From: Schmidtea nova
Taxonomy: Eukaryota
Assembly (NCBI GenBank): GCA_044892505.1
Contig: CM097882.1
Location: 434,806,001 to 434,870,000 of the forward strand
DNA length: 64,000 nucleotides
Reading direction: 5' to 3'
Below are positions 5,594 to 64,000 of the stretch, piece after piece. The position numbers and the translations under genes were made by a program. Under the pieces are notes generated by a model. It was not told the DNA's origin. It searched no databases and worked only from the letters and a program-made list of their open reading frames with translations. Each line of letters begins with the position of its first letter. Position 1 is the stretch's first letter.

Positions 5594-5797
5594 TGGGATA
5601 TCCTTGTAAATGAAATGTGTCTGGGATAACAATATTTGATATGTTAATGTTATTATCTTCTTTGAGAATAGAGATAATTTATTTATTGGTAATTTGAGTA
5701 AAGATAATTCGATTATTCTGGGATATTCTTGTAGATGAAATGTGCCTGGGATAACAATATTTGATAAGCTAATATTACTGTCTTCTGTGAGAATAGA
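5594..5797. repeat. Diverged direct duplication, period ~125 bp
   Basis: tgggatat(c/t)cttgta(a/g)atgaaatgtg(t/c)ctgggataacaatatttgat at 5594 and 5719. Confidence 0.8.
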
Positions 5798-40693: not shown

Positions 40694-40699
40694 TAGTTT

Positions 40700-43215: not shown

Positions 43216-43244
43216 ACGAAAGCAAGTCTCTGTAGCATCTTACT

Positions 43245-46012
43245 GCCGTACTATCAACACCGCAAACTCTCTTCCGGTACGTTGTAAAGTACGCCCTCTT
43301 TCGAACGAAAAACTAGATTTTGTTCGCTCCGAATTCGCTACTTTGTTGAACGAAGGCATTATAAAAAGATCTAAATCTCCATGGTCTTCACCACTTCATC
43401 TCGTACCAAAGAAAGACGGAACTTTCAGACCTTGTAGAGATTATCGTCGTTTAAATATGATTACGGTTCACGACTCATATTCTATGCCTTTAGTAAACGA
43501 CATTTTGTACAGACTTACCGAGGCCAAAATATTTTCAACTACCGACTTAGTTAAGGCCTATCACCAAATCCCAGTTAAAGAATCTGACGTGGAAAAAACC
43601 GCAGTTTTAACACCTATCGGACTTTTTGAGTACGTTTTCATGCCGCTTGGTCTTAGAAATTCCGCTCAAACCTTTCAAAGACACATCGACCATTTTTTAA
43701 TGGATTTACCATTCGCAATTCCTTATATTGACGATATCCTCATTGGTTCTAAGGATGCGGAAACACACAAAAAACATTTAGATGCAGTTCTTTGCGCACT
43801 TTCTTCCAATAACCTACAGATTAATTTAGATAAGTGTTTATTTTTTAAAGAAGAAGTCCGTTTTTTAGGTCACATTATCTCGGGCCAAGGCGTCAGTTCA
43901 CCATCTGACAGACTAGATACTATATCTAAGTTTCCTCTTTCACAAACTGTTACTCAACTTCGGAGTTTTCTGGGAACAGTAAACTATTGCCACCGTTTTA
44001 TTCCTAAAATTTCAGAAATTCTTTCACCTCTTTCTGGTTACTGTTCTAGACCAAAGAAATCTATAATTCCTTGGATCGATACTTCGTTGCTCGCTTTTGA
44101 GCATGCTAAAACAGCCCTTTCAAACATACAGACTTTGCATTATCCACGAGGAGATTTGCCATTACGTTTAACCACAGACGCGTCAAACATAGCAATCGGT
44201 GCCGTTTTGCACCAGATAAACGGTTACATCCCAGAGCCACTAGAATTTTACTCAAAGAAACTTACCTCACCACAACAAAAATATTCAGCTTTCGACCGCG
44301 AACTTCTCGCTATTTTCCAGTCGGTTAAACATTTTAAGCATTTACTCGAGGGCCGTCTTTTTAGCATCCATACAGACCATAAGTCACTTGTTTACTTGTT
44401 CTCAATGAAAGACCCTTCTCCGAGACAACAACGCCAGATTAGCTATAGTAGCGAATTTTCTTGCCAAATATATCACATCGCCGGCAGTGATAACATTATA
44501 GCTGATTGCCTCTCACAAAATGTAAACGCAATTATCCATTGTCCTTTATTTTCTATCGACGAACTCCAAAATAATCCTCCAGATGCCATTGATATTTCGA
44601 AATTTGGCGACAAACATATAATCAAAGACAAAATTCACTACGACTCATCTCTTCCTGGCACTCTTCGCCCAATCTTGAACGACTCCATGAGAAAACCGGC
44701 TTTTCTATCTATCCACAACGAGCACCACCCAGGTTCCTTAGCCACTTTTAATCTATTACACACGTGTGTAGTTTGGCCAAACATGAGACATGATGTTAAA
44801 CTCTGGGTTGCACAATGCATAGGATGCCAACGTTTTAAAATAATTAAGCACACAAAACCTCCAATAATTCATTATCCCACTGGCAACCGTTTCGAAAACT
44901 TACACATTGACATCGTCGGCCCAGTCCCAAGTGACTGCGGTTTTTCTTACTTAACCATGATCGACCGCAAGACTCGTTGGTTCGAAGTCATTCCTTTACG
45001 CACCATTTCTTCTAACACTATCGCAACTTCGCTAATTCAAAATTGGATTTCACGATATGGAGTTCCCAAGTCGATCATCAGTGATCGCGGAACACAGTTT
45101 GAATCTAACTTATTTCAAGCTTTGACCGCTAAACTTGGGATACAACATCTTCGTACGACCACATATCATCCACAAACAAACGGGTTAGTCGAACTTTTCC
45201 ATCGTACTTTAAAAGCTTCTCTTGGCATTCTTTCTGAACAACAAGGTTGGACAAAGGTTTTACCTTTCGTATTATTAGGTTGGCGAAATACACCTTCTAG
45301 GACTACAGGATCATCACCTGCTCAATTACTTTTCGGTACAAACACATCGTTACCCGGTCAACTTGTCGACTTTGATAACTCTCCTACTTTGGAAGATCTC
45401 GCGATTGCCAGAGACCATTTTTTATCAATCGACACTAATCCTGAATTCTCTTCCGCGACCACCTATAAACCTTACATTCCAAAAACATTCGAAAAGGCAT
45501 CACACGTCTATATTAGAAATATAACTGATGCAAGTTTAAAGCCAAGATATTACGGACCTTACAAGCTCGTCGAGATTAAAGAAAACAACGCGAAAGTGAT
45601 CGTTAACGACGCTACACAAACATTTAACCTCTGCCGTCTTAAACCAGCTTTAGTTTTGCTCGATGATGAACCTCCATCTGACAATTTCTCGACCCAAACC
45701 GATATAATCCCGAACTCTCACATAAACGATAATGACCCTATCAATTCCACTGAGGACGATCTTTCCAACAACTCACTTTCATACCCGATTGTTCAAATAT
45801 CAGACGCAGAAAACAAAATTACGGAAAAATCTGAATACATACCGTTTATCCCAGAACCAAATGACGTACTTCGTTTACCACCCATTTTGAGGAAAGCAAA
45901 TCAAACACAAAATAAACCAAAGTCCGTCACTTACAACAAATGGGTTCGTGTCCGTTCTATTAATCAAAAACCGGATTCACCAACCAGACTAATAAAAATC
46001 TATTCAAATTAA
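43245..46012 (+). CDS. pol: CsRn1-like Ty3/Gypsy pol (RT-RNaseH-INT), open frame but 5'-truncated (no gag or protease)
   Basis: SPWSSP, PLGLRNSAQTFQR, YIDD, TDAS, DRELLA, DHK, HNEHHPG..CIGC, HIDIVG, ISDRG, VELFH, YYGPY. Confidence 0.93.
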
Positions 46013-46290: not shown

Positions 46291-46536
46291 AAATGACGAT
46301 TTACCTCCAAAAACAATCTTAGTAAAAAAATAATATAAAATTTTAAACTGTGATAAAATTGTAAAACTTTTATTAATATCCTTGTACAAAAACATTTTGT
46401 TTTAATTAAAGGTATAAATATTGGGATTTTTAAAATAGATAGTTTGAGAAGTTTATTCAATTCGTTAAATTTTTTGAAATAGAAATTTTTGAAATTTATT
46501 ACATTTTCAAAGATTATAATATTAAAAGCATTAATT

Positions 46537-46888
46537 ATGATTCTTTTATGCTTCTTTATCAGTGTTCTGCTACAGACAAACAACTAATGAATGTCCATGT
46601 TTTATATCGACATGGCGATAGAGCACCTGTTATTATATATCCAACTGATAAGAATAGGGAAGACAAGTGGCCCAATGGGATTGGAGGATTAACAAATCGA
46701 GGAATTATGCAGCATTTTAATTTGGGCATGTGGCTACGACGTCGTTACAATGACTTCCTTGGGCAATATTTAAACTATTCATTAATAGAGCATTAATGTC
46801 TGCCGAATCAAATCTAGCAGGTTTATTCAACAACCTATCTAAAGAAGTGATCAACGGTCTAAAGTGGCATCCTTTCCCGATTCAAACT
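46537..46888 (+). pseudogene. Intronless fragment of a histidine acid phosphatase (ACP2/ACPP-like)
   Basis: Signal-like start, VLYRHGDRAP, WPNGIGGLTNRG, LGMWLRRRY, RALMSAESNLAGLF, WHPFPI; frameshift and internal deletion. Confidence 0.85.
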
Positions 46889-46961: not shown

Positions 46962-48137
46962 TTATTTATCATGTTTTGCCGTAATCAGGTATTTGGCTAC
47001 AAACGGGCATAAACATGCTAGTAATTTATATGAATTTCCGAATACTTGTTTCAGCTGTCGTAGTGATTCTAAGGAAGAACAAATCATTTTTAGTAAAAAC
47101 AACCGTATAGTAAATTCCCAAAATTGTAGAGAACATGTTTCCAAGGACTGCAAAATATCCCCATATACTATATAATACTTTATATACTACTTTTTTGAAA
47201 TATTCTTTTGATAACACCACGTCAGAGTTGTAATTTCCTCCATAACTTCCTTCGATAACTTTGTTCACCATTATTGACAGTATTCCTTCTTTTTCGTTTG
47301 GGAATAACATGTGTTTTCTTGCACTTTCTATAGCTTCTCTCGTATATATGCCATTGCTATCCATATCGTTGATTTCTTTAAACTCCAATCTTTTTTCAAG
47401 CTCTATGAGTTTTAATTTGAGGGGTTTCATCGCCTCTTTCCTATCTGACATAGATATCCACATTTCGTCATTTATCTTATATAATGGATTAGTACATTTT
47501 TCTATTTTTCTTGGTACATAAGTTTTTTCTGTTAGTATTCTCGTAATCGGTTGAAGGTATACTCTTTCTCCTTTGTATACTACAGGTAACTCGTTTGTGC
47601 ACTGATTGTTTGTTGCTAATGATACACTAACAGGTTTACATTGGAATGTCTGTATTACTTCCCCTACTATTCTAGCAAATGTTCCCTCTTCTGAAAAGAT
47701 TATTGGGGCCATTAAATCTTGGTTTGTTACTGCGACTGCCATTTTTGTTCTTAATATTTCTCGGTTGAGTTTGCAATCGCTCATAATTGTTGATTGGTAC
47801 ACTTTATCTAGTTGCACTAACTGATTATGATAGAAGAAATCGATTTTATTGTTAAAATACGAAGCGAGTTTGACGTTGAATTTGTTTACTTTCTGTTTTG
47901 CATCTTTAACTTCTTCCTTACTTACGTATATCCCTTCATAATTAGTTCGTATTATTTCCTTACCGCATTTTACACTTTTTCCTTTACTAACAAACCTCAT
48001 TTCTTCATTTTCGGATTCTGACATATATATTGTTGGTGTATCTTTTTCTTGTACAATTGTTGTTTTTCTTTTCTGATCTCTTACTCTTTTAGAATCTACT
48101 TCTGTGAACTGCTTCCCTTTAATTTCTCTAAATTCTC
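46962..48137 (-). pseudogene. env: Chuvirus-like class III fusion glycoprotein (env-like), C-terminal two-thirds with TM
   Basis: CGKEIIRTNYEGIY..YFNNKIDFFY..DCKLNREIL..GTFARIVGEVIQTFQCKPV..CTNELPV..YLQPITRIL..WGYFAVLGNMFSTILGIYY; frameshift near 47080. Confidence 0.8.
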
Positions 48138-48265
48138 GTTTCAAAAATTTAGGAAACGAGCGAATTTACAAAATGTAAAAATCTCTGGAGAGGCAGGCAG
48201 TGCTGATAATAAAGCTGCTGAGGATTTTGTAGCTAAATTCGATGATTTCCTTAAAGAAGAAAATC
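48138..48265 (+). mobile_element. Internal pogo/Tigger transposase fragment
   Basis: FQKFRKRANLQNVKISGEAGSADNKAAEDF matches the Tigger/pogo motif RFKKR..L.NVK..GEAASAD. Confidence 0.75.
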
Positions 48266-49400
48266 TATTTATTACCCAACTCATCCATCCTTCTTCGGAT
48301 TCTTCTCTTTCTACTCTTGTTAAACGGTTTATTTCTACTGCTTGTCTTTGATTGATGTTACTTATAGTTTGATTTTCTCTGGTGAGCTCAGTTATAACTC
48401 TTTTTTGCTCTTCTGTTCTATGCAATTGTTCAAAACAGTTGTTATAACTCTCTGATAATAGAATTTGTCTTTCCGCTAGTTGGTTTTGTAATGAGTTGAC
48501 TGTTCGTACTAGTAAATCACATTGCGCTTTCCATCTCATGGCCATAGTTATTTCAGTTGTTTCGTCTTGTTCGTTCATTTCTAAATTATATACATCAATT
48601 ACTTTCTCGTTTTCTCTTTTTATGTATTTTATAATATCGATACCCATACTATTACGGTAATGCTTTATTATTTATACTATTATTTACAGTCATAATCCGC
48701 CCCTATACTCTCATTACTTTCCTTTCGTCGTATCTCTCTTCATCTTCTATTTGCTTCCAAAATTCTTTACCTTTCGTTCTTCTTTGAAATTCTTTCTGTA
48801 TTTCTTCTGGTATTTCTATTCTTTGATTCGTAATTTTAATATCTGGCCATTGTATGGCTGTCGCTTTATTTCTCCTCCTGTACATCCAACATACTATCAT
48901 GCTCGTTGTCAGTATTCCACCTGTTATTAATATTCCCATACTAATTACTCCTATTACTATTTTACCAGTGTTTGTTTCTTTGGTTTTATTCTGATTCACC
49001 CTTATCTCATATTTGTCTTGGATTTGAGCCTCCGGCTTCCTCTCCTTCTGCGCTTGGCTCTTGACTTTGTTCATTACTTCTTGTGTAGACCAATGGTGGT
49101 TTAGTATTTGTTTGGCGTAGTTTTCCGTTGTTCGGTTTCTCATGTTTCCTGTTTCGATATGTTGATTCAGTTTCTCCGAGATCTGGTATGATCCGCACTC
49201 TGTCTCCTCTGAATTTTTTCCTGTAAAGGTACATATCGCGTATGTCTCATTTACCTCCTTTTGCCTTAATTCGACTTTTCCCTTGTTCCCTGTTTCTTTA
49301 CAATGGGTTAGGTTATCTTCTTCTACTTCTGGGTTATGTTTTATCCAACATACTCCTTTCACAGTCTGTTTGAGTCCTATTAATGTTAAATTATTATTTC
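48264..49400 (-). mobile_element. Fragment of a sister copy of the giant element (last FN3-like repeat, TM, tail, spacer and coiled-coil ORF)
   Basis: Collinear with ~56177-57310; proteins 48703..49362 and 48264..48578 closely match 56622..57280 and 56137..56493. Confidence 0.93.
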
Positions 49401-49953
49401 CTAGCGATTTTTCTTTTGAGCGCGTTATTCACTAATATATAACGAACAACTGTTTTATAACTAAGTTTTATTAATATATTACAAATGCTGGGTTCATGGA
49501 GGGGTTAGATGGAAAATGCTCTAACAATGACTAGGGATCCCTCATCCATGATCATGCATAAAATTGCAATTCTACACTCAAGCGCCCTTGATTATTTCCC
49601 TATATAATCAAGTTGGTGATGCGCAGGGTGGTTAAACAATGATGGGCAGGTGAGCACTATCGCTAGTACTACTCCCCATTTATGTTTACGGGTTCATCGC
49701 TGCCGTTAGAAGGACTTATGCTTTAATCATCTACTTATGTATTCCGCGTTAATCTTTCAGAAAATTTATTTTTATCATTGCTCAGTCTGCGAGAAGTATT
49801 TCAACGAATGCTCGCTTAATGATTTAATTATCTCTATTCGATATTTTGTAAAATGAATTTATACTTTTGTTCTATCTTTATCTAATCATTGGTAAAGTTA
49901 ATTAAATCAATTTAAATGAACGATAAAATTCTTAAGCCAATACAACAATTTAT

Positions 49954-50550
49954 TTAATTTTTAATTAGTTCGGTAAAAACTCCCGCCGGAGGAAAAATCT
50001 CCGTCAATAATGCCTCCTCGGTCATCTGATGTAGACCATCTACTTGGCTTTGTAATCGCTGGGCAAATAATTTTCTCCGTCTCCGCCGTTTCTGCCCAAT
50101 GCGCTTGCGTTTCTGGTGCGCATTTGCCGATGAGGTGGTTGAATTTGCTGCAGGAGCGGTCTCATTCCGACTTTCGATTAGATCGGCGACATCCGTGCCA
50201 ATAGAGGTTACCGTCTTCTTTTCTGATGTCCAAGCTTGATACGTAACCGGACGGATTTGCTCTCTGAGCTCTTTCTCAATATATGAGGCCGTTACGGAAT
50301 GGAGGCATTTTCGGAGTTCTATCTTTGTAGCCTCCCATTCCTTTTGATAATCGGCTGCCGTCTGTTGGGCGCGCTCGGTTTTACTGATTTGCTCCTTCAT
50401 TCGGGCCGGAGCAAACCAGCTTTTGCGCAAGTATGCAATCTGTGCCTCTGCTTTGATCAATTGTGCCTTGAGGAGACCCAATTCCTTGTCCTGGGCTCTC
50501 CGAATCCGCCACATCTTTTCCAATTCTCTCTGCATCAAATCGGTGTTCAT
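49954..50550 (-). CDS. Hypothetical coiled-coil protein with basic NLS-like tract, inside the putative LTR
   Basis: 198-aa ATG ORF; KRKRIGQKRRRRRK; TAG-a-ATG context. Confidence 0.55.
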   Translation of the reverse strand: MNTDLMQRELEKMWRIRRAQDKELGLLKAQLIKAEAQIAYLRKSWFAPARMKEQISKTERAQQTAADYQKEWEATKIELRKCLHSVTASYIEKELREQIRPVTYQAWTSEKKTVTSIGTDVADLIESRNETAPAANSTTSSANAHQKRKRIGQKRRRRRKLFAQRLQSQVDGLHQMTEEALLTEIFPPAGVFTELIKN

Positions 50551-50727
50551 TCTATAATTTGTTTAGGATATTTACTCTATGATTTAATTATATAAAAATT
50601 AAAATCTGATCATAGGATTATTAGGTTACGAATATGAACTATTAAAATGCGAAACAAAACTCAAAAACAAAAATTCACTAATGAACTCTAATATTTTAAC
50701 ACAATTTCAACATTTGTTAATCAGTTT

Positions 50728-51204
50728 TCATCTCCGAAACAAACTATGCAATTCACTGTTAATCGGTTTCTGACGAAGACGAGCCCAAGAGAATGAGGGT
50801 TGTCCTTTCTGGCACTCCTTGCCGAACGGTTTTCGTGGTAAGAATTCGTACAGACCCAGTTGGCATAGCTCTCGACGAGGGATATGCCCCCAATAAATTA
50901 CACGGCTTGTCCGTCCATCTGTGTCCTTGATCAGTACGACAAGTCGGCCAAATTTGTTTGAGTACGGCCTTTGGGAAATCGGCCAGTTCGGTCCTCCTCG
51001 ATAGAGTATTTTATCGTTTCCTCCGTCCCAGATGGAAAACGGGCACTTTCGACCAAACCCTTGCCGCCACTTGTATGCTTGGGCGTTAATGGTCCGCAGA
51101 ATTGGCTGGGGCAACTCCTTGAGCTGATTGGCCCATCCATTCGCCCTGTCCTCCTTTCCTGAGTTCCGAATCCGCATTAATCTTTCGTTCAACGATGTCC
51201 GCAT
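50728..51204 (-). CDS. Hypothetical basic protein inside the putative LTR
   Basis: 158-aa ATG ORF, relatively GC-rich island flanked by AT-rich spacers; CAG-ATG context. Confidence 0.5.
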   Translation of the reverse strand: MRTSLNERLMRIRNSGKEDRANGWANQLKELPQPILRTINAQAYKWRQGFGRKCPFSIWDGGNDKILYRGGPNWPISQRPYSNKFGRLVVLIKDTDGRTSRVIYWGHIPRRELCQLGLYEFLPRKPFGKECQKGQPSFSWARLRQKPINSELHSLFRR

Positions 51205-52841
51205 CTGTCATTTTATTTTATTCAATAAAGAGTTGAATGTAAATTATATTTAATCTCCATCGTTTTAGTTAATTCCATTTCGTGATTAAACCATTGCCGC
51301 GATATACCACGGTCGAATAAGATATTTGTTTTCCCTGCGCCATGTACGACGATCAGGATAAGATTAATCTGAGTTACCGCGCTATGTACAGCGATCGGCA
51401 TAAAAGTATTTTTAGAATTTACAGATTTTTAGTTTTATTTAGAATGGAATTTAAAGTATTTTTAGAATGTACCAATTTTCAGTTTTACTAATCTCTGTCA
51501 TGCAGTTGCGATATCCTGTACCTTGACCTCAATTGAAAATCATCAGTTTGATCGATTTACTTGGAAAATTTTTATAACTTGTCATGCTACGCCGGCTCTC
51601 TCGTCCTCAAATTTAACCTCAGCGTGTCAACCCATTTGTCTCGGGTACCTGACACTTATCGGGTACTTTACCCCTTCCTGGTATCTCCTTAGACCTTCTC
51701 TACCGCCGCTGCGCTACGTCCCCTGTACAACCAAATGATGACTTTTTACCTATCGCCAGAAAACCGTCTGGACGTATTCGCATTATTGATATTTCGTGAC
51801 TGAAAATTTACTCGACTAAATAAGCATCAAAATTCTCTAATCTCGCTGATAAATATCTGGTTAACTTTGAATGATTTACTTTAATTGTTTCAACTACCAA
51901 ATTAAAAATGAAAACCAAAACAATAAAAAGGTTGAACCGCCATGTGAGACCGTGAGGCCCCACAACGACGACTCGGACTCCCTCGCCGCGTGAGCAGCAT
52001 AGGAAGTATAACTATATGCATTAAAAATAATAAAAAAAATAAAAAATAAAAAATAACGTTTACATATAAGATTTTAATTAAATAAAAATCATGGGTACAT
52101 CATATAAGATAACATAAAAAAAATTACTTCCGTACTTGAATGTGTGGTTCCTTGTATGAAATTCGGTTCTTTCAAAAAATTTACTCAAATCAAAGTTTAG
52201 TCTTGATTGTGAGTGAAAAGTAAACGTCTAAGTCTGTGATTTTTGGATCGGTATTTATACTGATCCGTCTGGTTGGATTGACCAATCAGGATCAGGCCGT
52301 CCTTCAAAGTATTTTTATTATTTTAATCTAACCTAAACATTATTTTGTTTCCTTTTCCGGTTTCTCGCTGGGTGGTCCTGATTTTCCAAGTAATTAATTA
52401 ATTATTTGTACTATTATTTTATTTAATTCTATTTTTTCTTATTTCAGGCCCCCTTTTGCGGTTGTTTACCGGTTTATTTTCAAAATTTCCTTTTACTGAA
52501 AATTTATCAATTATTATTTGTCGTTTTATTGTTATTTTTAATTTGTTTTTCTTGCTATTTTTATTTTTATTATTTCTTTATTGTTTCATGCTTTTGTTCG
52601 TTTTATTGTGTTTTTAGGTGATTTGGCGGGCCCAACATCACCCGGGGACCCCTAAAATTGCGTCCCGCAATTAATTATACATAAATACTTATATTCATCA
52701 TCCATAAAAAGTTTTATAAAGTTATACATGCAAGAAAGAAAATCACATAAGGTGATCGAATTTATACATATCATAAAGTTTGTCACTAAATAGTCAAAAT
52801 GTAATGATTTGTCACAATAGTTCGATAAGTTATCATAATGT

Positions 52842-53411
52842 TTATACAATTTGTTCGATCGTCTGGCTCGCTTGGGGTTGAGTTCGGGTCCTCTCGTTGA
52901 TTATTTGTAGCTCGTAGTGGGTTTGAATGTGGTTGAGATGGCTCCTTATTCGTCTTTGAGCTCGGTTATCTCGTCTGGAGGTTTGGTTGTAGATTTTCTG
53001 CTTTTGTTTTAGGATTTTTATTCTATATGAGGCAAGCAGGATTGTGATTGCGATGATAGTTGTGCTGACTGCTAGGATTATGATGATTGCTATGATCCAT
53101 TTTCCTTGATATTCTATTTCAGCTTGGGATAGGCTTTTTATGGGTTCTCTACCTTCTTTCAGGATTTTTCGGGTTTCTTCTAGTTTCAGTTGTTGTTTAT
53201 CGAAGATTTGTTGGATTTGATGGTCTTGATTGTGAGGGTATTTCTGTCGGAATTCGTTGATTTCTTTAATTACTTCTTCGATTAGGCTGTCTACTTTCTG
53301 ATAGGTTTTGTCGGGTAGAACTCGTAATTGGGTTTCGGTTAGTTGTAGATCTTCTCTCTGTAGGGTAATGGTTGTTAACCATAGGAGTGTTGCTATTGCG
53401 AGCTTTCTCAT
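52842..53411 (-). CDS. Small type I membrane protein (signal peptide, helical ectodomain, TM, basic tail)
   Basis: MRKLAIATLLWLTTITL; WIIAIIIILAVSTTIIAITILLASY followed by RIK. Confidence 0.7.
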   Translation of the reverse strand: MRKLAIATLLWLTTITLQREDLQLTETQLRVLPDKTYQKVDSLIEEVIKEINEFRQKYPHNQDHQIQQIFDKQQLKLEETRKILKEGREPIKSLSQAEIEYQGKWIIAIIIILAVSTTIIAITILLASYRIKILKQKQKIYNQTSRRDNRAQRRIRSHLNHIQTHYELQIINERTRTQPQASQTIEQIV

Positions 53412-53486
53412 CTCTTTTATACATCGGTCAATACAGCTTGACACTTTTTATTTTACATAATTTATTTACACTTGGTTTCCGCACAT

Positions 53487-54548
53487 TTATACAAGGGTTT
53501 CGTTGGGTTCGTGACAACCTTCGTCTTGAGGTTCCACTTGATTTATGGGGAGTGGCATCCATATTACCGTGCTCCTCCACATTTCGACTTCTTCTCGGTA
53601 TGTGTGGGATATCTGGATCTCTTCATCTAATAAGTATTCCAGATAGTTCGCCTGTTCTGTTAGGGTTTCAATTTGCTTTTCTAGTTCTGCCAATTTTTTC
53701 TCTCTCTCTTCCTTCTCCATCATTTCGGTTACTGCTGCTGTGATACTTGTTTCTTTTATTGGTATTGGTTTTTCTGCCAACTTCTTTCTCAGTTCTTCGT
53801 TTTCTTTTGTCAAATTTGTTATGTTCTCTTCATAGCTCTGCCTCGTTTCTTCCAGTCTTTCTTTAGTTCTTTTTAATTCTATTTTCTTCTGGGTGATCAC
53901 TCCTTGATATCCATTTATGTCTCTTTTCATGTTTTCCTCCTTGTGATTCCACATTCCGGTCAGCATACCTTTTAATTGTTCTTGATTGGCTAAATCTTCT
54001 CCCATTCTTTGTACTTGATAAGTTAATTCTTTTATTTTCTTGGCTTGTTCTCTGATAAATTGTTGTCTTTTCTTACTCCATACTTTATTTGACGCTTCTT
54101 GACTGATCTTTTGCCCTAATTCCTCTTTTAATTCATCGATCTCTTTAAACAGTTTCCAATCATCGCTGTACGCTGTTCGTTCTATTATCTCCCTTGCTTC
54201 CTTGTAAGAGTCTTCTGCCTCTTTCTTCCAATATCTTGCTTGTTCTGTGATTGACTGAATCTTATGGTCTGTTTTTATTTGTTGTCTATCCCTATCCTCT
54301 CGTCGCTCTTTCATCATCTCTTTGTAGTATTCGTTTTGTTGTCTTAGCAGTTTGTAGACTTCTTCTATTTTTTCTCGACTTCTTTGATTCGTTTTCTCGG
54401 CTTCTCTTAGTGCTTGGGTTTGTCTTTCCAATTCCTCCTGTTTTCGATAGTAGGCATGAATCCATATCCCAATCCGCTCCATGTGATTTCTGATCATTTC
54501 GTCTTGATGTACTGTTACTTCTTGTAAGGTTACTTCTATATTTCCCAT
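53487..54548 (-). CDS. Long coiled-coil protein, 353 aa
   Basis: E/K/R/Q-rich heptad-like sequence; uninterrupted ATG ORF starting MG. Confidence 0.75.
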   Translation of the reverse strand: MGNIEVTLQEVTVHQDEMIRNHMERIGIWIHAYYRKQEELERQTQALREAEKTNQRSREKIEEVYKLLRQQNEYYKEMMKERREDRDRQQIKTDHKIQSITEQARYWKKEAEDSYKEAREIIERTAYSDDWKLFKEIDELKEELGQKISQEASNKVWSKKRQQFIREQAKKIKELTYQVQRMGEDLANQEQLKGMLTGMWNHKEENMKRDINGYQGVITQKKIELKRTKERLEETRQSYEENITNLTKENEELRKKLAEKPIPIKETSITAAVTEMMEKEEREKKLAELEKQIETLTEQANYLEYLLDEEIQISHTYREEVEMWRSTVIWMPLPINQVEPQDEGCHEPNETLV

Positions 54549-54667
54549 TTCTATAATTACAGATAAAACGAATATTTAATCATTTTTTATTTTTATTTTT
54601 ATTGTTTTTGATTATTTGTTAATTCATATTGTTTCTATACATTTTATTTACATGGTTACTTCCTTCA

Positions 54668-56136: not shown

Positions 56137-56493
56137 CTATGGCTCATTCGTTGAATCTGGTTCCGCTTCGTTGTTTAGTCTATTTATTACCCAACTCATC
56201 CATCCTTCTTCGGATCCTTCTCTTTCTCCTCGTGTTAAATGATTTATTTCTATTGCTTGTCTTTGATTGGTGTTGCTTATTGTTTGATTTTCTCTGGTGA
56301 GTTCAGTTATCGCTCTTTGTTGTTCTTCTATTCTGTGTAATTGTTCGAAACAATTGTTATAACTTTCTGATAATAACATTTGTCTTTCCGCTAATTGGTT
56401 CTGTAATGAGTTGACTGTTCGTACTAATAAATCACATTGTGCCTTCCATCTCATAGCCATAGTTATTTCAGTTGTTTCGTCCTGTTCGGTCAT
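56137..56493 (-). CDS. Small coiled-coil protein, 118 aa
   Basis: ATG ORF conserved in the sister copy at 48264-48578. Confidence 0.7.
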   Translation of the reverse strand: MTEQDETTEITMAMRWKAQCDLLVRTVNSLQNQLAERQMLLSESYNNCFEQLHRIEEQQRAITELTRENQTISNTNQRQAIEINHLTRGEREGSEEGWMSWVINRLNNEAEPDSTNEP

Positions 56494-56621
56494 TTTCTAA
56501 ATTATATACATCATTTACTTTGTTTTTCTAGCTTTTTACAAATTTTTTTATAATATCGATACCCATACTATTACGGTAATGCTTTGTTATTTACACTATT
56601 ATTTACAGTCATAATCCGCCC

Positions 56622-58070
56622 CTATACCATCATTATCGTCTTTTCTTCGTATCGTTCTTCATCTTCTATTTGTTTCCAGAATTCTTTACCTTTCGTTCTT
56701 CTTTGAAATTCTTTCTGTATCTCCTCTGGTATTTCTATTCCTAGTTTCATGATTTTGATATCTGGCCATTGTATGGCTGTCGCTTTGTTTCTCTTTCTGT
56801 ATCTCCAATATACTATTATGCTTGTCGTCAGTATTCCATATGCTATTAATATTCCTATACTCATTAATCCTATTATTGTTTTTCCACTGTTTGTTTCTCT
56901 TTTATTCTGGTTCGCTTTTATCTCATTTTGGGTTTGAGCCTCTGGCTTCTTCTCTTTCTGTATTTGACTCTTAACTTTGTTCATTACTTCTTGTGTAGAC
57001 CAATGGCGGTTTAGTAGTTGTTTGACGTTATTTTCTTTTGTTCGGTTTTCCATGTTTCCTGGTTCGATCTGTTGTTGTAGTTTCTCTGAGATCTGATATA
57101 ATCCGCATTCTGGTTTTTCTGAACCTTTTCTGGTGAAGGTACATATCGCGTATGTCCTATTTACTTCCATTTTCTTTAATTCGACTTTTTCCTTATTCCC
57201 TATTTCTTTACAGTGGGTTAGGTTGTCTTCTTTCCCTTCTGGGTTATGCTTTGTCCAACATATTCCTTTAACTGTTTGATCGAGTCCTGTTATTGTCAGA
57301 GTTCTTTCTGTCTTTGTTAATTCTTCTTCATCGAATTTCAGTATCTCTCCTTTTTGGAATGTCTTGCAATGCTCTATTCCCTCTTGGATTCCTCTCTCCC
57401 AGATACATATACTTCCTTCTTCATTCATTTGTATTTCTTGTATTTCGATTTCCTTGTTTGTTCGTGATTCGTCGCTTGTCTGAACTTGGTATTCCTTCCT
57501 TGGTTCGTTGTATGTTCCCCAGCATAGTTTGTTGCTGCTTGTTTTTCTTATTGTTATGGCCATTTGTTCTATTATTATTCCTTTATCGATACGTTTGGAC
57601 ATTGCTATTATCAACGCTATGCATACGCACTCTTGTTGGGGTGATGTTCTTTCTCTCGTGTTATTGGTGCTTTTCTCCCCTTCTCCTGGTTTATCCGTTG
57701 TGTTTCTTATCTGAGTTGCTGGTTGATCTATGGTGTTTTTGATTTCTTTCTTTGTTGGTTTTACTCTATACCATTCAAGTCTAGGTGTTTCGTATTTTTG
57801 GCATACGACTGTCTTAGGTAGCCCCGACTTCTTTTCCTTTCCTATTATGCATATCCGATGCATGATTCCTCTATCCATCCCTTCTATTCGTACTATATCC
57901 TGGTCGGATTTTCTGATTATGCATTTTAGGGGGTTATCTTTCCCAATTGGTTCATCCTCTCTATTCCAGCATATTTTCTCGACCTCCTGGACATTTACTA
58001 TTTTTATCCCTGCTTGTAGGTTTGTTGCTTCTTCCCTATTGATTAATGTCAATATTATTGTTAGACCCAA
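56622..58070 (-). CDS. Type I membrane protein with three Cys-type FN3-like repeats; paralog of the polyprotein C-terminus; lacks an ATG
   Basis: WLGLTIILTLI signal-like segment; ICW..C..I.I..(Y)..IC..C..Y repeats; IIGLMSIGILIAYGILTTSIIVYW-RYRKRNK. Confidence 0.8.
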   Translation of the reverse strand: MGLTIILTLINREEATNLQAGIKIVNVQEVEKICWNREDEPIGKDNPLKCIIRKSDQDIVRIEGMDRGIMHRICIIGKEKKSGLPKTVVCQKYETPRLEWYRVKPTKKEIKNTIDQPATQIRNTTDKPGEGEKSTNNTRERTSPQQECVCIALIIAMSKRIDKGIIIEQMAITIRKTSSNKLCWGTYNEPRKEYQVQTSDESRTNKEIEIQEIQMNEEGSICIWERGIQEGIEHCKTFQKGEILKFDEEELTKTERTLTITGLDQTVKGICWTKHNPEGKEDNLTHCKEIGNKEKVELKKMEVNRTYAICTFTRKGSEKPECGLYQISEKLQQQIEPGNMENRTKENNVKQLLNRHWSTQEVMNKVKSQIQKEKKPEAQTQNEIKANQNKRETNSGKTIIGLMSIGILIAYGILTTSIIVYWRYRKRNKATAIQWPDIKIMKLGIEIPEEIQKEFQRRTKGKEFWKQIEDEERYEEKTIMMV

Positions 58071-58107
58071 CCATTTTGAACTCTGCGGTAGGCTTCTGGT
58101 TCGCCTT

Positions 58108-61100
58108 TCATATTTTTTTCTCTTCGCCTTTAATCTCTTTTAGTTCCTTGTCTTTGTTGTTCATCCCTAGTTTTGCGATTTTTGCTTCTTTCTTATTCCT
58201 GGTCGATTTTGGTTCTTCTCGTGCTTCTAGTCTTTCGACTCCATGGCTTGTATTATCTATATTTAGCCATTGGGTTGTTGATTTTCTTGGGCTTATCTTG
58301 CGTATCCATATAGCTGATAACGCGATTATTACTGGTATGGTCGCTGTTAATATTCCTAAGCCAATTAGTTCTTTAATTTCTTTATTCTCGTCTGTTTGTA
58401 TAGATTCGCTTTGGTTGAACATTATTCCGTATTGTCCCTTTAGTTTTCTCATTAATTGTTCCCGTTCCTCCTGCTTTCTTTTGACTTCCTTGATAACTTC
58501 TTCGGGTGTCCGTTTTGCTTGAGGGTCGGTTATTGTTTTTTCTGCGTTCATTTGTTCATTCGTTTGGCTTAGTTCCCTGAATTCGAGTTTCCTTGTTATT
58601 CCTTTTGATGTTGCGTTCGCTGGTGTATAGTAGGTTTCGCATCTTTCTTGTTGGTTTCCTAGTGCGTCCGTTTTTTCTATTGTACATACTTCGTATTCGC
58701 TATTAAATTGTAGTTTTTCGATCTTGATTTCTTTATTTGTTTTTCTGCACTTTCTTGATTGTCTTCTTATATGTTTCTGGACTATTATCCAACATATTTC
58801 CAATGTTTTATTCTCTATTTTCCATAATGTCAGAGTTGCTGATGTCTTTCTCTCGGGTTTTGTCGTAACTTTTTGGTTTGTTGGTTGTTTGTCGCTTTTA
58901 AGGGTAGTGGTGTACTTCGGTTTTCCTTTGTTTCGTTGTTTCCTTTTATTTTTCCGTGTTAACGTTTTGGTTCTTGTTCCGGATGAAGTGGTGTATATTC
59001 CGCATTCTAGGTCGTTTATCGTTATCTGATCATTTTTCTTTACCAGACATATTTCGTAAGTTTGTTTACTTTCTAAACCTTTTATTTGTATCGTCGTTGC
59101 TCCTGTGCTTGTTCGACATTGTGGTGTCTTTCTTTCATTCGTCTCTTTTTCGTACTTCCTCCAGCATACTCCTTTCACATTTGGTTCTATTTCTTTTATT
59201 TCTAATGTTATGTTTAGTTTCTGCTTGATTTGTTTATTTCTCTTCCTCGTTCTCCTTCTGAACTTTATTACTTCTCCAGGTTGGAATGTTTTACATTTTG
59301 TGGTACCTTTCTTGTTTGTCTCTTTTTCTAGTAGGCATAGTTTGTACGTCTTATCTGCTTTTACTTCGGATACTTTAATTACTTTATTCGTTGTTGGTTT
59401 TCGACTTTTCCTTATTTCATTTACGCCGATTTCCTCGTTATTCCTTGCCCAACATTTTATGTTAGTATTCTGTGTATCTTCTACTTCTGTTATTGTCATA
59501 GTTTCAATTTCTATTCCTTCCTCTAATCGTTTTATCATTATTAGTATGAGTGCTAAGCATAATACTTCCATTTGGTAAGACACTCTTTCGGTTTCGTTTG
59601 TGGCAACTCTTGCTTCGGGCCTCTTTATTGTAATTCGTATAGTTGGTGTTGTTTGCTTATCTATTACCTGGGGTTTTTTGTTTTCTGTTCCCTGTGTCTC
59701 TGTTCTTCCACATTTTCCGAGGATGTAATCTCCTTTGGGTGACTGTTGTATTGTCATGGCTGCTTTAGGTGTTTGGTATTTTGCACATGCGATTGTGTTG
59801 TGTGATCTTGGATGCTTTTGTTTTCTAACGGTGCATATTTTGTACCAGGTATCTAGATCTAAGTCATTGATCTCTATGATCTCTTGCTCGTGTTTTGAGA
59901 TTCTGCAATCCATCGGGCTATTTTGTTCCGTGGTTTTGTCCTTTTTCGACCAACATACTCGTTCGATTCCTTTTGCGTTTTTTATTTGTATTATTGCCCT
60001 TTCTTCACATGTCATTCCCTGACTTGGATTAATTAACGTTATAATCATTGTTAGTAATAGTAATTCTGGTTTGAAGAATGGTTTTATGGTTGATTTATAA
60101 CCTGTTCTTTGGGTGTCATTTTTATCTCCTTGGTCGTTTGTTCCTTGTTCTCTCCCTTCATCTCTTTGTTTTTCATCTTCACCTTTCTTTCCTTCCTTGT
60201 CTCGTTTCTTGTCTTTTCTCTCGTTTTCCTCTTTATCGGGTGGTTCGTGATCGCTTGAATTTTCTGAGTTGTTACCGTCGTCACTATCTGTGTTGTCATC
60301 TCCCCCTGGCTCGTCGAAAATGTCGTCCTCGACATTGATTTCTTCTATTAGTTTCGCATACGCTAATGTCGTTAGATTACTTGCCTCAAATTCTTGTGTT
60401 TCTACCTGCTCCGGTATTACTTTGTTAGTGGATTTATGTTCCAAGATTTCCTTTTTGGCCTTGATCCAATTGTTGATGTATGTCTTCATCAATTCTTTCC
60501 ATTTGCCTGTGTATTTTTCCTCTTTCGGGCTGGTTGTGATTTTTAGATCTTTTCTTTCCATAAACATCTTCAATATCTCTGGCCATTTATACGTTATTAA
60601 GGCACTTCTTATACACCAGTTTTGGTTATGTTCTGTAAACTTATTAATCCTGAATGCTGGTTCGTTAGTATTAGGATTTATCCACGTAAGTATTGATTCT
60701 GTTAGTTCGACGTTGTTCATCATTGCTAGTACACTGGGTTTCTTGACCGTATCAGTTAGGTGATCTATTTCTTCCTGATTTGGGACGGTTTTAATGAAAT
60801 TGACCATTTCCCAATTGTGTGTTAATAATGCTACATCCAATATCGAATTATCTTTATCTGTCTTTCCTGTAAGTCCTGCACCTGCTTTGTATAGTTCTTC
60901 TAATACCTTTGTTTTCGTTCTGGCCCTTGCTGCAAATACCATAAGTGTATCTCCTTTCTCGTCTATCATATTCATATTGCTTCCGCAATTTAGCATTACT
61001 CTTGCAATTTCCATTACTTTTCTATCTTTGCCATTTCGTAAAGCTCTATGTATGGGCATTATTCCGTCTTTTGGTAGTAAAAACGCTACTGGCATCTCCT

Positions 61101-64000
61101 TTTTTATAGTCGTTATATCGTTACCATTGTATGTTCCTTTTGCGTATGCGTGTACTTTTTCAACTAATGCACCGAGTATTTCCAGTGCATGTTTACTATT
61201 CTCGAATTCCGGTAACAATTCTTTTGCTTTTTCTTGTATCGCATCTAGTCTAGCTTGGTATGGTGCTTCTGCTTTGAAGAGTGGTGTGAGTTTCTTGTTA
61301 CTTTCTCTTTCTTTTTTCTCTAAAACCTGTTTGCATTTTTCGGGATGGTTTAAGATTTTTACTAATTCCTCATATTCGCTTACTATCGTCTGGTATTTCT
61401 CGTTAAAATTGTTTATGTCTTTGTATGTTATTAGTTTATCAAGTGGTTTCGCACACCATTTCCTAATCTTATTGAATAAGGCTTCCTTCTCTTTATCGAA
61501 TTTGTATTCTTCTTCATTCTTTGTGATGTTTATGTTTCCTCTGTCTAATAAGGTTAGTAATGTCTTCTGATCACAAGTAAATTTCAAAAGGTATCTTAAC
61601 AGTGCGTTTTGTCCTTCGCTGTATACTTCGTTTATGTCTAAGACCCATGTATCATCTTCTGGTCGTTTCCATTTGATTAACTTACGGATCGTGTTGCATT
61701 TACCAATTTTGATTGCCTCTTTGATAATGTCTCCTTTAACTAGTTCGTCTATCTCCCAAGTGGAGTTAGCTATTATGTATTTCAGCATTGGTTGGTGAGA
61801 ACTCCATATTACGTGATTTAGCACTGTTTTGTCTTCTCTATCTCGTTCTGTCCAACTGAAATGAGCTTTTATCAATAGGTCTATCATTTCTTTATCTGCT
61901 TGGTGGATTGCGGCTGTCATTAATGGAGTTTCTTGTTCCCGATTCCCTACGTCCAAGTTTTGGTTTGTTTCTTTTGCGATTTTTAGGAATTCTTTTGCTC
62001 TTTCAATGGTTTTACACTCTATCGCATTATGTAAGGCTGGTTGTCCTCCTACATCTTTCAATAAGAGTATTTCAGGGATTTTTTCCAATAGTTCAGAAAT
62101 AATTGGTTCGGTTGGTAATCCTTGTGCGTAACGGCTAATTATATGTCTAATATCCCTTGATATGTCTGCTTCGTCTCTAACATGCCATCTTCCCATTATC
62201 TCTCTCGCCTTCAATATGATTTCTTTATTTCTGATTTCTTTTTGCCTTATTTCTGCTTTGTCGTCTTCAGTTGCATTAGCTCTGAGCATATTTATCCTGG
62301 CTGTTTGTGATCTAGTTATTATTCGATTTTCTGGTGTTGTAGTTATCGTTTTAGGCACCTTCTTACATCTGCAGGTGTTTACATATATGGGTCGTATTAA
62401 CGGTCGATTTATTAGCTTAACTTTGACATTGTTGTCCTTTTTGTATATAATTTCATAAGGTCCTCTTCCAGGTCTTTGGAGTTTCTTAACAGTTCCTGGT
62501 ATTATTTCGGGAGTTTCTATTATCACCCAATCTCCTGGTTTTAGGTCGTTCGCTTTAACATTTTTCTTCTGGTCGTGTAAATCCTTATAACTTTCCTGAT
62601 AAAATTTAATGTTGAGTTCTGCCGTTTTCCATATCTCCTGCATTCTTTCTTTGAATTTGGTTACGTAGTCGTCATCTTCCATATATTGCGCTAATGGTGG
62701 CTGATACTCTAAATCTATGGGCATGTTGCATTCTCTTCCATACATAAGTTGAAATGGGCTTAGTTTTGTTGCTGCATGTATCGACATTCGGTATGCCATT
62801 AAACATAATTTTATATATGCGTCCCAATCAGTCTGATGTCTGCTGACGTAATTTGATAACATTCTGATCAATGTACCATTGAATCGCTCCGTTTGTCCAT
62901 TCGTTTGCGGGTGATATGGTGAAGTTCTCAATTTTGCTATTCTGAAATAGTTTGTTACCTCGTTCAATAACTCACTCATAAAATTAGTTCCTTGGTCTGT
63001 GAGTATTTGTTTTGGAGTTCCGTATCTGCAACATATTTCTTCCACTAAAATTTTTGCTACAGTTTTTGCTTTTTGGTCTTGCATGGCAAATGCTTCCGGG
63101 AATTTTGTCAGATAATCTGTTATCACCAATATATAAATATTTCCGTTTAGACTTTCCGGTAATGGTCCTATTACGTCCATTGCTATAGTTGTCATTGGCT
63201 CTGCTGGTATCGGCATTGGTTGTAGCGGGTTTTTCCATTTCCTCCCACTATCCTTTCTGGTTGCACAAGTTAGACAATTTTTAATCCATTCCTTTATATC
63301 TTCTTCCATTGTTCGCCAATAATATTTTTGTCTCATACGATTTATTGTCTTCTTCTCGGACATATGACCTCCTAATTTCCCATCATGGTACTGGATCATT
63401 ATCTCTTTCCTTCTGTTTTCCGGTAAACACATCAATCTCTTTTCTCCGTCTTGTATTAACAACCATCCTTTATTTATTATGTAGCGATGTTGATATTTCC
63501 CTATATGTTCCTTTAATTCCTTATTATCCTTGAATACCTCCATATTTCGAGACGTTAGGAACTCTATGATCTGTCCCAATTCTTTGTCTTCCTGTTGATC
63601 TTTCTTTAACTCACTAAAATCTAAATCCTCCGCTATTAATACACAAATTCGTTGTACATCAGGATCGGTTAATTCCGGAAATGTCAGTCTTGACATACAA
63701 TCTGCATTCGCATTCGCTCGTCCTGATTTAAATTTTATGTCTGGTGAGTACTCCTGTAACTGCATTGCCCATCGCATTAATCTACTGGATGTTTCCTTGT
63801 GCTGTCCTAACCATACAAGTGGTTGGTGATCTGTTGTTATGCAGATGATGTGTCCCCATAATAGGTATTTAAAATGTTTAATTGCTAATATAATCGCTAA
63901 TGCTTCTCGCTCTGTCACTGAATAATTTTTCTCATGCTTTTTGAATGTCCGGCTATAATATCCGATTACCCGTTCCTTTCCTTCGTCGTCGTATTGTCCT
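58108..64000 (-). CDS. pol: Pol polyprotein: RNase H - integrase (HHCC, DDE, GPY) - ankyrin clusters - acidic linker - signal - 4 FN3-like repeats - TM - tail; open to the window edge
   Basis: EREALA, TDHQPL, YHDGKLGGH..CLTC, AMDVIGP, LTDQG, TERFNG, GRGPY; GQPALHNA, ETPLMTAA, IMPIHRAL, GDTLMVFAA; LLLLTMIITLINPSQG; LIGLGILTATIPVIIALSAIWI-RK. Confidence 0.93.
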   Translation of the reverse strand, partial: GQYDDEGKERVIGYYSRTFKKHEKNYSVTEREALAIILAIKHFKYLLWGHIICITTDHQPLVWLGQHKETSSRLMRWAMQLQEYSPDIKFKSGRANANADCMSRLTFPELTDPDVQRICVLIAEDLDFSELKKDQQEDKELGQIIEFLTSRNMEVFKDNKELKEHIGKYQHRYIINKGWLLIQDGEKRLMCLPENRRKEIMIQYHDGKLGGHMSEKKTINRMRQKYYWRTMEEDIKEWIKNCLTCATRKDSGRKWKNPLQPMPIPAEPMTTIAMDVIGPLPESLNGNIYILVITDYLTKFPEAFAMQDQKAKTVAKILVEEICCRYGTPKQILTDQGTNFMSELLNEVTNYFRIAKLRTSPYHPQTNGQTERFNGTLIRMLSNYVSRHQTDWDAYIKLCLMAYRMSIHAATKLSPFQLMYGRECNMPIDLEYQPPLAQYMEDDDYVTKFKERMQEIWKTAELNIKFYQESYKDLHDQKKNVKANDLKPGDWVIIETPEIIPGTVKKLQRPGRGPYEIIYKKDNNVKVKLINRPLIRPIYVNTCRCKKVPKTITTTPENRIITRSQTARINMLRANATEDDKAEIRQKEIRNKEIILKAREIMGRWHVRDEADISRDIRHIISRYAQGLPTEPIISELLEKIPEILLLKDVGGQPALHNAIECKTIERAKEFLKIAKETNQNLDVGNREQETPLMTAAIHQADKEMIDLLIKAHFSWTERDREDKTVLNHVIWSSHQPMLKYIIANSTWEIDELVKGDIIKEAIKIGKCNTIRKLIKWKRPEDDTWVLDINEVYSEGQNALLRYLLKFTCDQKTLLTLLDRGNINITKNEEEYKFDKEKEALFNKIRKWCAKPLDKLITYKDINNFNEKYQTIVSEYEELVKILNHPEKCKQVLEKKERESNKKLTPLFKAEAPYQARLDAIQEKAKELLPEFENSKHALEILGALVEKVHAYAKGTYNGNDITTIKKEMPVAFLLPKDGIMPIHRALRNGKDRKVMEIARVMLNCGSNMNMIDEKGDTLMVFAARARTKTKVLEELYKAGAGLTGKTDKDNSILDVALLTHNWEMVNFIKTVPNQEEIDHLTDTVKKPSVLAMMNNVELTESILTWINPNTNEPAFRINKFTEHNQNWCIRSALITYKWPEILKMFMERKDLKITTSPKEEKYTGKWKELMKTYINNWIKAKKEILEHKSTNKVIPEQVETQEFEASNLTTLAYAKLIEEINVEDDIFDEPGGDDNTDSDDGNNSENSSDHEPPDKEENERKDKKRDKEGKKGEDEKQRDEGREQGTNDQGDKNDTQRTGYKSTIKPFFKPELLLLTMIITLINPSQGMTCEERAIIQIKNAKGIERVCWSKKDKTTEQNSPMDCRISKHEQEIIEINDLDLDTWYKICTVRKQKHPRSHNTIACAKYQTPKAAMTIQQSPKGDYILGKCGRTETQGTENKKPQVIDKQTTPTIRITIKRPEARVATNETERVSYQMEVLCLALILIMIKRLEEGIEIETMTITEVEDTQNTNIKCWARNNEEIGVNEIRKSRKPTTNKVIKVSEVKADKTYKLCLLEKETNKKGTTKCKTFQPGEVIKFRRRTRKRNKQIKQKLNITLEIKEIEPNVKGVCWRKYEKETNERKTPQCRTSTGATTIQIKGLESKQTYEICLVKKNDQITINDLECGIYTTSSGTRTKTLTRKNKRKQRNKGKPKYTTTLKSDKQPTNQKVTTKPERKTSATLTLWKIENKTLEICWIIVQKHIRRQSRKCRKTNKEIKIEKLQFNSEYEVCTIEKTDALGNQQERCETYYTPANATSKGITRKLEFRELSQTNEQMNAEKTITDPQAKRTPEEVIKEVKRKQEEREQLMRKLKGQYGIMFNQSESIQTDENKEIKELIGLGILTATIPVIIALSAIWIRKISPRKSTTQWLNIDNTSHGVERLEAREEPKSTRNKKEAKIAKLGMNNKDKELKEIKGEEKKI

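Follow-up and report, generated by a model that had tools for sequence, protein, structure and literature searches.

Opening of the Integrase Frame into Ankyrin Repeats

The locus analysed here raises the question of why the integrase of a very large LTR element continues in frame into ankyrin repeats, and of what such repeats would do for the element that carries them. The window, by which we mean the whole stretch of 64,000 nucleotides from Schmidtea nova that was analysed, contains on its minus strand (58108-63999) a single stop-free frame of 1,963 codons, which grows to 3,405 codons when the sequence beyond the window is included and which carries RNase H, integrase, the GRGPY motif (62469-62455) and then both ankyrin clusters without a stop anywhere. 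The continuation of the integrase after GRGPY, as proposed in a preliminary description of this DNA, was thereby confirmed.

The frame belongs to a minus-strand LTR element of approximately 29.8 kb that lies partly in the window and partly in the neighbouring genome, of which 30 kb were examined. The 3′ LTR lies within the window, the 5′ LTR, with the same sequence and the same length of 3,152 bp, lies 12-15 kb past the window end, and the internal region between them comprises about 23.5 kb. A target-site duplication of 4 bp was located at 49482-49485, and immediately internal to the 5′ LTR there is a primer-binding site that matches the tRNA-Pro genes of the genome at their 3′ end. In the window copy, the large reading frame (ORF1) is interrupted at three places, none of them between the integrase and ankyrin cluster 2. 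When unbroken, ORF1 of this family (family 1) comprises ~5,660-5,740 codons (5,657-5,736 in the eight of 20 sampled copies in which it is open) and encodes, in order, Gag, an in-frame Env, protease (PR), reverse transcriptase (RT), RNase H (RH), integrase (IN), two ankyrin (ANK) parts, an acidic linker, a likely signal peptide, FN3-like repeats and a transmembrane (TM) segment. Beyond the window, upstream, the same frame encodes an Env matching PF24664 (mononegavirus-type fusion protein; E 3.9e-72), located upstream of RVP, as well as PR and RT, and Gag with CCHC knuckles was found in the upstream ORF1 piece. The features of the element within the window are as follows:

58108..63999, minus strand: window part of ORF1, with RH, IN, two ankyrin modules, acidic linker, signal-like stretch, FN3-like repeats and TM
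62908..63423, minus strand: integrase zinc-binding (H2C2) and core (rve) domains
62455..62469, minus strand: GRGPY, C-terminal part of the integrase, which we take to be a GPY/F-type motif
62281..62316, minus strand: TRSQTARINMLR, integrase end and likely protease cleavage site, the cleavage being a prediction
61318..62280, minus strand: ankyrin module 1, ~330 aa (Pfam Ank_2 core 62034-61765)
60370..61317, minus strand: ankyrin module 2, ~316 aa, tandem duplicate of module 1 (Pfam core ~61068-60793)
60100..60354, minus strand: acidic, charged low-complexity linker (36% D+E)
60016..60069, minus strand: hydrophobic stretch resembling an internal signal peptide, with small residues at its end (by eye and hydropathy)
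58309..60015, minus strand: four FN3-like repeats, then a TM helix (58365-58309); a second hydrophobic stretch lies near 59570-59520
56622..58139, minus strand: more FN3-like repeats together with a TM segment and a cytoplasmic tail; in the window copy this is a frame of its own, in unbroken copies the in-frame ORF1 end
56137..56496, minus strand: ORF of 119 codons
54668..56047, minus strand: separate TRAF ORF with RING-like part, TRAF zinc finger, coiled coil and MATH (MATH_2 E 7.7e-21)
52842..54575, minus strand: two accessory ORFs (362 codons and 201 codons) that match no Pfam family above the cut-off and are retained in most copies
49486..52637, minus strand: 3′ LTR of 3,152 bp with TG...CA ends, identical to the 5′ LTR

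The acidic linker behind the ankyrins and the TRAF protein on the same element, both of which had been noted from the sequence, are present at these positions. The 505-codon frame at 56622-58139 was considered as a separate ORF or the product of a programmed frameshift, and this was discarded, given that unbroken copies read from ORF1 into it without a change of frame. For other domains, the similarity was lower or absent: the PR-RT stretch matched dCTP deaminase/dUTPase at E 0.18-0.49 only, the SUMO/ubiquitin-like family PF11976 was matched at E 0.028 by the family-4 homologue of the region, and no Pfam or PDB match to BIR or BCL2-like domains was obtained in the ORFs of the window element, BIR being present in family 4.

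With high probability, the element belongs among the Burro-like giant LTR retrotransposons. It shares with Burro/GYPSM1, as far as the excerpted account goes (PMC6431247), a size of ~30 kb or more with long LTRs and an internal region within the limit of 25 kb, a single giant gag-pol ORF (~5,000 aa) with CCHC knuckles and the order PR-RT-RH-IN, an in-frame env-like fusion protein between gag and PR, ankyrin repeats, MATH/TRAF (here in an accessory ORF), RING, a tentative SUMO-like part and a high copy number.

Identity, Fold and Duplication of the Ankyrin Module

Profile searches placed both ankyrin clusters where they had been described, at ~62060-61765 and ~61075-60795. When the two clusters were scanned separately, each scored above the Pfam Ank_2 cut-off of 27.3 bits, with 36.4 bits for cluster 1 (E 8e-9; 62034-61765) and 35.0 bits for cluster 2 (E 2.2e-8; ~61050-60793, with an Ank match from 61068). 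A phmmer search of the PDB returned 58 sequences at E<=0.001, nearly all of them ankyrin proteins or DARPins, and the language-model atlas gave a score of 0.98, with all ten of the ten best matches being ankyrin. Aligned with each other over 211 aa, the two modules share 22% identity (E 2e-7), and lying one directly behind the other they cover the stretch from an INMLR motif to the acidic linker; these alignments show that a single ~330-aa module was duplicated in tandem to give the two clusters. The helical region said to separate the clusters exists as a stretch, but it does not form a separate spacer; it combines the C-terminal half of module 1 with the N-cap that opens module 2. In a tree of the modules, each family-1 module pairs with its counterpart in the related family 2 (support 100/100), and the duplication is therefore older than the split between these two families; families 3 and 4 were not placed with confidence in this tree.

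Single-sequence folding of both modules gave a pLDDT of 37 and was discarded, and a 14-row alignment was used instead, from which module 2 was modelled with a mean pLDDT of 89 and a pTM of 0.81. In agreement with the preliminary description, for which structure prediction had been suggested as a check, the model is an extended ankyrin solenoid with helical caps, and the predicted fold reaches beyond the Pfam matches. It aligned with ankyrin stacks over ~185-210 residues (about 46-280) at Z 13-13.7, the best rows being FEM1B (Z 13.7), a bacterial ankyrin (13.6), Bcl-3 (13.5), DARPins and IkB-beta (13.2), which are ties. Searches of protein databases, limited by length and word size, gave 1, 1,486 (of which the best 150 were considered), 23 and 29 matches and included no full-length relative of the module, only generic multi-ankyrin proteins. 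Likewise, a genome-wide Ank_2 search identified no donor gene, its matches being mostly short host-type frames.

Copies of Family 1 and Selection on the Module

The search with the ankyrin region yielded 3,590 candidates, and 20 copies were obtained by taking every fourth of 80 scored matches. From the integrase core to the end of cluster 2, 18 of these 20 were open and fully aligned; one contained a stop and one was partly unaligned. LTR pairs, recovered for 15 of the 20 (two of the 15 partially), were 98.7-100% identical, and family 1 is young and numerous. A search with the integrase only gave 113 matches, 45 of which were not in the ankyrin-region list; 40 of these were fetched, and the five left out had frames of at least 5,640 codons. 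Among the 40 integrase-selected copies, cluster 1 was found at one fixed offset in 38 and cluster 2 in 36, and in the four copies missing a cluster the similarity to the element breaks off abruptly. The frame was open up to the end of cluster 2 in 24 copies, and the first stops in the other 16 were scattered, except for four that coincide close to where cluster 2 begins. No shared stop marking the C-terminal end of the integrase was found among the 40, and the scenario in which other copies end after the integrase, which had been named as grounds for rejecting the observation, does not apply to either set.

Regarding selection, omega was estimated from variants shared among 21 copies, and since the copies are related, the following figures are variant counts and not independent events: cluster 1 carried 10 nonsynonymous and 25 synonymous variants (omega 0.10), the stretch between the clusters 9 and 28 (0.08) and cluster 2 6 and 22 (0.07), to be compared with reference values in the same copies of 0.00-0.01 for RT and the integrase core and 0.24-0.26 for the acidic linker and the FN3-like block. 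The ankyrin module is under purifying selection in family 1.

Related Families in the Genome

Searches of the genome with the Env, BIR and MATH families were followed by the examination of six, four and four elements, respectively. In family 2, the integrase is 86% identical to that of family 1, and the two modules, present in three of four elements, are 39% and 50% identical to their family-1 counterparts, with saturated dS. Family 3 has an integrase ~75% identical to that of family 1 and one module. Family 4 likewise has one module, and its LTR pairs are 99.8-99.9% identical in three elements. Between the LTRs of these three elements, no match to RT, IN, env or gag was obtained at E<=0.05; they do retain the SUMO-like part, PR, one module, the signal-like stretch, TRAF and a BIR-RING ORF. 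For the module, three pairwise comparisons among three family-4 ORFs gave a pN of 0.007-0.013 versus a pS of 0.067-0.092.

Other elements dispense with the module. For instance, in a family with an env-bearing frame of ~3,400 codons, whose integrase is 52% identical, the integrase is followed directly by the signal-like stretch, and the same arrangement was seen by eye in an old element within the window (40100-43250). Because six of the ~3,400-codon env-bearing elements have spread without ankyrins, replication as such can proceed in the absence of the module. Since the ankyrin-less elements run from the integrase into the signal-like stretch, the module looks like an insertion between the integrase and a membrane-protein tail, made in one sub-clade.

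Junction Motif, Predicted Processing and Membrane Topology

The border between integrase and module carries the motif INMLR, which occurs three times in the ORF1 pieces versus 0.003 expected. In its longer form, ARINMLR, it is kept in 60 of 61 family-1 copies and is identical in family 2, despite modules that are only 39-50% identical; the junction reads QICMLR in family 3, and QVCMFR stands ahead of the module in family 4. A related motif is located at the borders Env-tail/PR, PR/dUTPase-like, RH/IN and IN/ANK, and the 3,405-aa frame holds five motif matches, four of them at domain borders, versus 1.5 matches in shuffles, although the motif was defined after the borders had been inspected. 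The fifth match falls inside the protease, and the PR/dUTPase site is absent from family 2. The junction INMLR is likely to be a protease site between the integrase and the module. It could also be a conserved C-terminal motif of the integrase that is not cut. For comparison, the protease sites of Ty1 follow a different, hydrophilic P1/P1′ pattern in the excerpted source (PMC6952103). The motif VLAMM after cluster 2 was considered as a second protease site and rejected, as it aligns with the start of a degenerate ankyrin repeat in other families.

On the C-terminal side, a hydrophobic stretch ending in small residues follows the acidic linker at the same place in all four families, as judged by eye and hydropathy. 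The FN3-like repeats behind it received an atlas score of 0.91, which is taken as a lead only, and the fn3 profile matched the family-3 homologue at E 2.9e-5, just under the cut-off. From this arrangement we infer that the element's own protease would cut INML|R and thereby part the module from the integrase, and that the freed product would be ~750 aa in length, comprising both modules and the acidic linker and ending in the internal signal sequence. Such a product would be kept on the cytosolic face of the ER or another membrane, and the FN3-like repeats would go to the lumen or the cell surface. On this prediction, the ankyrin protein would reside in the cytosol and be held to a membrane by its C-terminal end.

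Possible Functions of the Module

We consider it probable that the ankyrin region is a duplicated accessory module of ~330 residues, likely freed from the integrase by the protease, that likely serves as a separate cytoplasmic binder of host factors and not as an integrase tether. Together with the TRAF and RING ORFs of the element, the module would likely damp host immune or cell-death signalling. The polyprotein carries genuine ankyrins, as had been claimed, and the host-interaction role assigned to them is likely. The preliminary description had also raised the possibility that the ankyrins tether the integrase to chromatin partners, which would place them at the position occupied in chromovirus integrases by a C-terminal chromodomain. 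The module does follow the integrase directly in families 1-3, with the frame open through cluster 2 in 18 of 20 copies, and EHMT1, whose ankyrins read methyl-lysine, is among the fold and profile matches. However, this proposal did not hold up well: a protease-site-like motif is conserved at the junction, the predicted product ends in a hydrophobic, signal-like anchor, and family 4 keeps the module under purifying selection without RT or integrase. Because of the likely cut site and of this retention, chromatin tethering is quite unlikely; moreover, the EHMT1 match was no better than those of generic ankyrins, and no Pfam match to a chromodomain was found in the ORFs of the element. The family-4 module could, as another reading of its retention, be supplied in trans to the integrase of a helper.

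A separate host-factor binder, as favoured here, might have several kinds of target. Polydnavirus vankyrins are viral mimics of IkB, and IkB-alpha carries a PEST stretch after its ankyrin repeats. The module could be an IkB-like inhibitor of Rel-homology (NF-kB-like) factors; in that case it would stem from an RHD-ANK gene of the host and be a relative of the ankyrin domain of PSCNV, the planarian secretory cell nidovirus. In a BFVD search with the model, which returned at least 500 matches, PSCNV supplied the top match, namely chunk 9 of its polyprotein (E 6.2e-5, TMq 0.52, 248 columns, 18% identity), a chunk that likely spans ANK 11394-11555 if chunk numbering starts at 1. Host RHD-ANK proteins are nearest to the PSCNV ankyrin, for which IkB mimicry has been proposed (PMC6211748, in excerpt). 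The top fold matches include Bcl-3 (Z 13.5) and IkB-beta (Z 13.2), the repeats of the module region lead into an acidic stretch, and TRAF is present on the same element. In spite of this, the margin in favour of PSCNV is small (the next BFVD match has E 2.0e-4, and other rows TMq 0.45-0.48), PDB IkB chains lie within 1 Z unit of FEM1B, the bacterial ankyrin and DARPins, and no IkB protein is among the best 60 of 429 sequence-profile matches. The sole RHD_dimer match found in the genome looks NFAT-like, an assignment that we presume from its motif, and the genome gave no match to PF00554, for which the controls were blank as well. Furthermore, the RHD factors of S. mediterranea are described as highly divergent, and the best NF-kB candidate had no effect on transgene suppression (PMC13563047, in excerpt). 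On balance, the IkB reading is doubtful.

A role as a ubiquitin-ligase substrate adaptor of the poxvirus ANK/PRANC, ASB or FEM1 type is unlikely. FEM1B and ASB chains do appear in the fold search, the elements bear RING, TRAF, BIR-RING and SUMO/ubiquitin-like parts, and functions in ubiquitination and apoptosis have been suggested for Burro elements (PMC6431247). Nevertheless, these fold matches tie with other ankyrins, F-box, PRANC and SOCS-box are absent among the 22 Pfam families matched by 14 module sequences at E<=1, and a scan with simple F-box/SOCS-like patterns, which a highly diverged box could escape, was empty in six modules. The three breaks in ORF1 of the window copy might suggest that the ankyrins are a functionless captured passenger or an assembly artefact. 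We regard this as extremely improbable given the omega of ~0.1 over both clusters, the fixed offset of cluster 1 in 38 of 40 integrase-selected copies, the conservation of the module in four families with saturated synonymous sites and the high-confidence predicted fold.

Comparison with Known Systems

Ankyrins together with MATH/TRAF on Burro/GYPSM1 elements are already published (PMC6431247). The excerpted account of these planarian elements lists ankyrin repeats, MATH_TRAF, BIR, BCL2-like, SUMO-like and dUTPase-like parts and an in-frame env, and it suggests interference with host apoptosis and ubiquitination, leaving such interference as an open question (PMC6431247). BURRO1 transcripts increase after smedwi-2 knockdown (PMC8532177). 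In contrast to Burro/GYPSM1, ORF1 has ~5,660-5,740 codons here versus 4,873 aa (PMC6431247), TRAF is a full separate downstream ORF and not a MATH domain inside ORF1, and BIR and BCL2-like parts gave no Pfam or PDB match, with a BIR-RING ORF in family 4. The Burro-like element of Dugesia tigrina resembles ours in carrying MATH/TRAF outside ORF1 in an accessory ORF and in an ORF1 of more than 5,000 aa; its accessory ORF is upstream and not downstream, and its ORF1 comprises 5,140 aa versus ~5,700 (PMC6431247). The tandem duplication, the cut site and the signal-FN3-TM tail are not mentioned in the excerpted Burro/GYPSM1 text (PMC6431247), and the excerpts of PMC11410931, PMC7586133 and PMC6952103 contain nothing on the ankyrin module. 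In the literature consulted, we found no account of a duplicated ankyrin module, of the likely protease site, of the signal-FN3-TM tail or of module retention in a pol-less family, some of which may be shown by Grohme et al. 2018 or Jurka 2007.

Among more distant systems, PSCNV is similar in having divergent ankyrins within a giant viral polyprotein, with a proposed modulation of host immunity, but it is an RNA nidovirus with three repeats in ~100-160 aa, and the comparison was made by predicted structure, at 18% identity and with a small margin (PMC6211748). In the IkB family and Bcl-3, as in the module, a comparably long ankyrin stack precedes an acidic stretch, and the fold matches reach Z 12.5-13.5; in contrast, the module shows no special affinity to them over other ankyrins, is duplicated, and has large helical caps and a likely membrane anchor. 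As in chromovirus integrases, an extra protein-binding domain is encoded right after GPY/F; unlike there, a likely protease site precedes the domain, and the domain persists without the integrase.

A more far-reaching reading would join these observations: an enveloped LTR retroelement and the unrelated nidovirus PSCNV would share homologous IkB-like ankyrins derived from host RHD-ANK genes, in the retroelement these would have become a duplicated, protease-released, membrane-anchored inhibitor beside an FN3 receptor-like protein and TRAF, and pol-less satellites would spread the cassette by the hundreds as a mobile immune-signalling kit. We hold this combination to be speculative and improbable as a whole. 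If the link to the PSCNV ankyrin is true, a single antiviral pathway would be the target of two viruses that differ greatly, and NF-kB signalling in the animals concerned is described as unresolved (PMC13563047, in excerpt).

For the Burro elements, the analysis narrows the ankyrin part to one foldable unit of ~330 aa with a predicted N-terminal cut site and a likewise predicted membrane anchor, and as the module is defined as one such unit, it can be expressed and pulled down alone. A high-copy family that has lost RT, integrase, env and gag still keeps the module and the protease, which suggests that cargo acting on the host can be of greater value to such elements than the genes for their own replication.

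ORF1 tail and small ORFs of the window element

The accessory coding regions of the window element and two related LTR families are listed below. The end of ORF1 likely encodes one or more surface proteins; it evolves faster than pol, with omega values of 0.24-0.5.

Features of the window element and of related families
Window 56622-60069, minus strand: end of ORF1, comprising stretches that resemble signal sequences, FN3-like repeats whose cysteines are conserved, and a pair of TM helices
Window 49954-51207: two ORFs in sense orientation within the LTR (159 and 202 codons), retained in most copies
L014:1334-1795 (a genomic locus): RING ORF of 153 codons, between the 5' LTR and ORF1
Loci L116-L133: env-bearing LTR family of 15-17 kb, with an ORF1 of ~3,400 codons and LTRs of ~860 bp
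Loci L134-L153 (e.g., L136 and L151): family 4, a non-autonomous LTR family of high copy number

Genomic surroundings

The target into which the window element inserted is an older relative at window 47026-49428, which is adjoined by an Env fragment (PF24664) and is 86% identical to the window element across the FN3-TM tail and the small ORF. Elsewhere in the window, by visual inspection, we tentatively take 8316-8774 to be an RGS-like exon, 11371-12423 a mariner-type transposase, 27640-29358 a broken hAT/SPIN-type transposase, and 46443-46796 an acid-phosphatase-like exon with an RHGDR motif. MATH-domain genes are densely clustered at about 405-455 Mb of the genome sequence G000:C2; this cluster is probably a host TRAF expansion and a possible source of the TRAF of the window element. 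Additionally, a large tandem array with a period of 308 bp and containing tRNA-Pro genes was found at loci L195-L197, its pattern giving 1,105 matches genome-wide.

Deletion and probable exchange and spread among related families

The second ORF of the env-bearing family (330-480 codons) had no Pfam match, and by eye it resembles a DEDD-type exonuclease. For family 4, at least 150 BIR matches were scored, mostly in ~399-codon frames. Besides the protease, an ankyrin module, and TRAF, this family retains a BIR-RING ORF of IAP-like type and further accessory ORFs; no RT, integrase, env, or gag was found between the LTRs of three elements (E<=0.05). In family 3 (L174-L193), a stop at one common position within integrase occurs in 11 of 18 copies, and many of 107 matches lie in ~1,345-codon frames; a defective sub-lineage has apparently propagated in trans. 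A family-2 derivative (L165-L167; LTR identity 99.4%) has lost the entire pol and the ankyrin modules, and its Env is joined in frame to the C-terminal half of TRAF. Finally, Env of the window element (family 1) is 98% identical to that of family 2 (L160-L161), with a dS of 0.36, whereas dS between their pol regions is saturated throughout; env was likely exchanged recently between these two old families.
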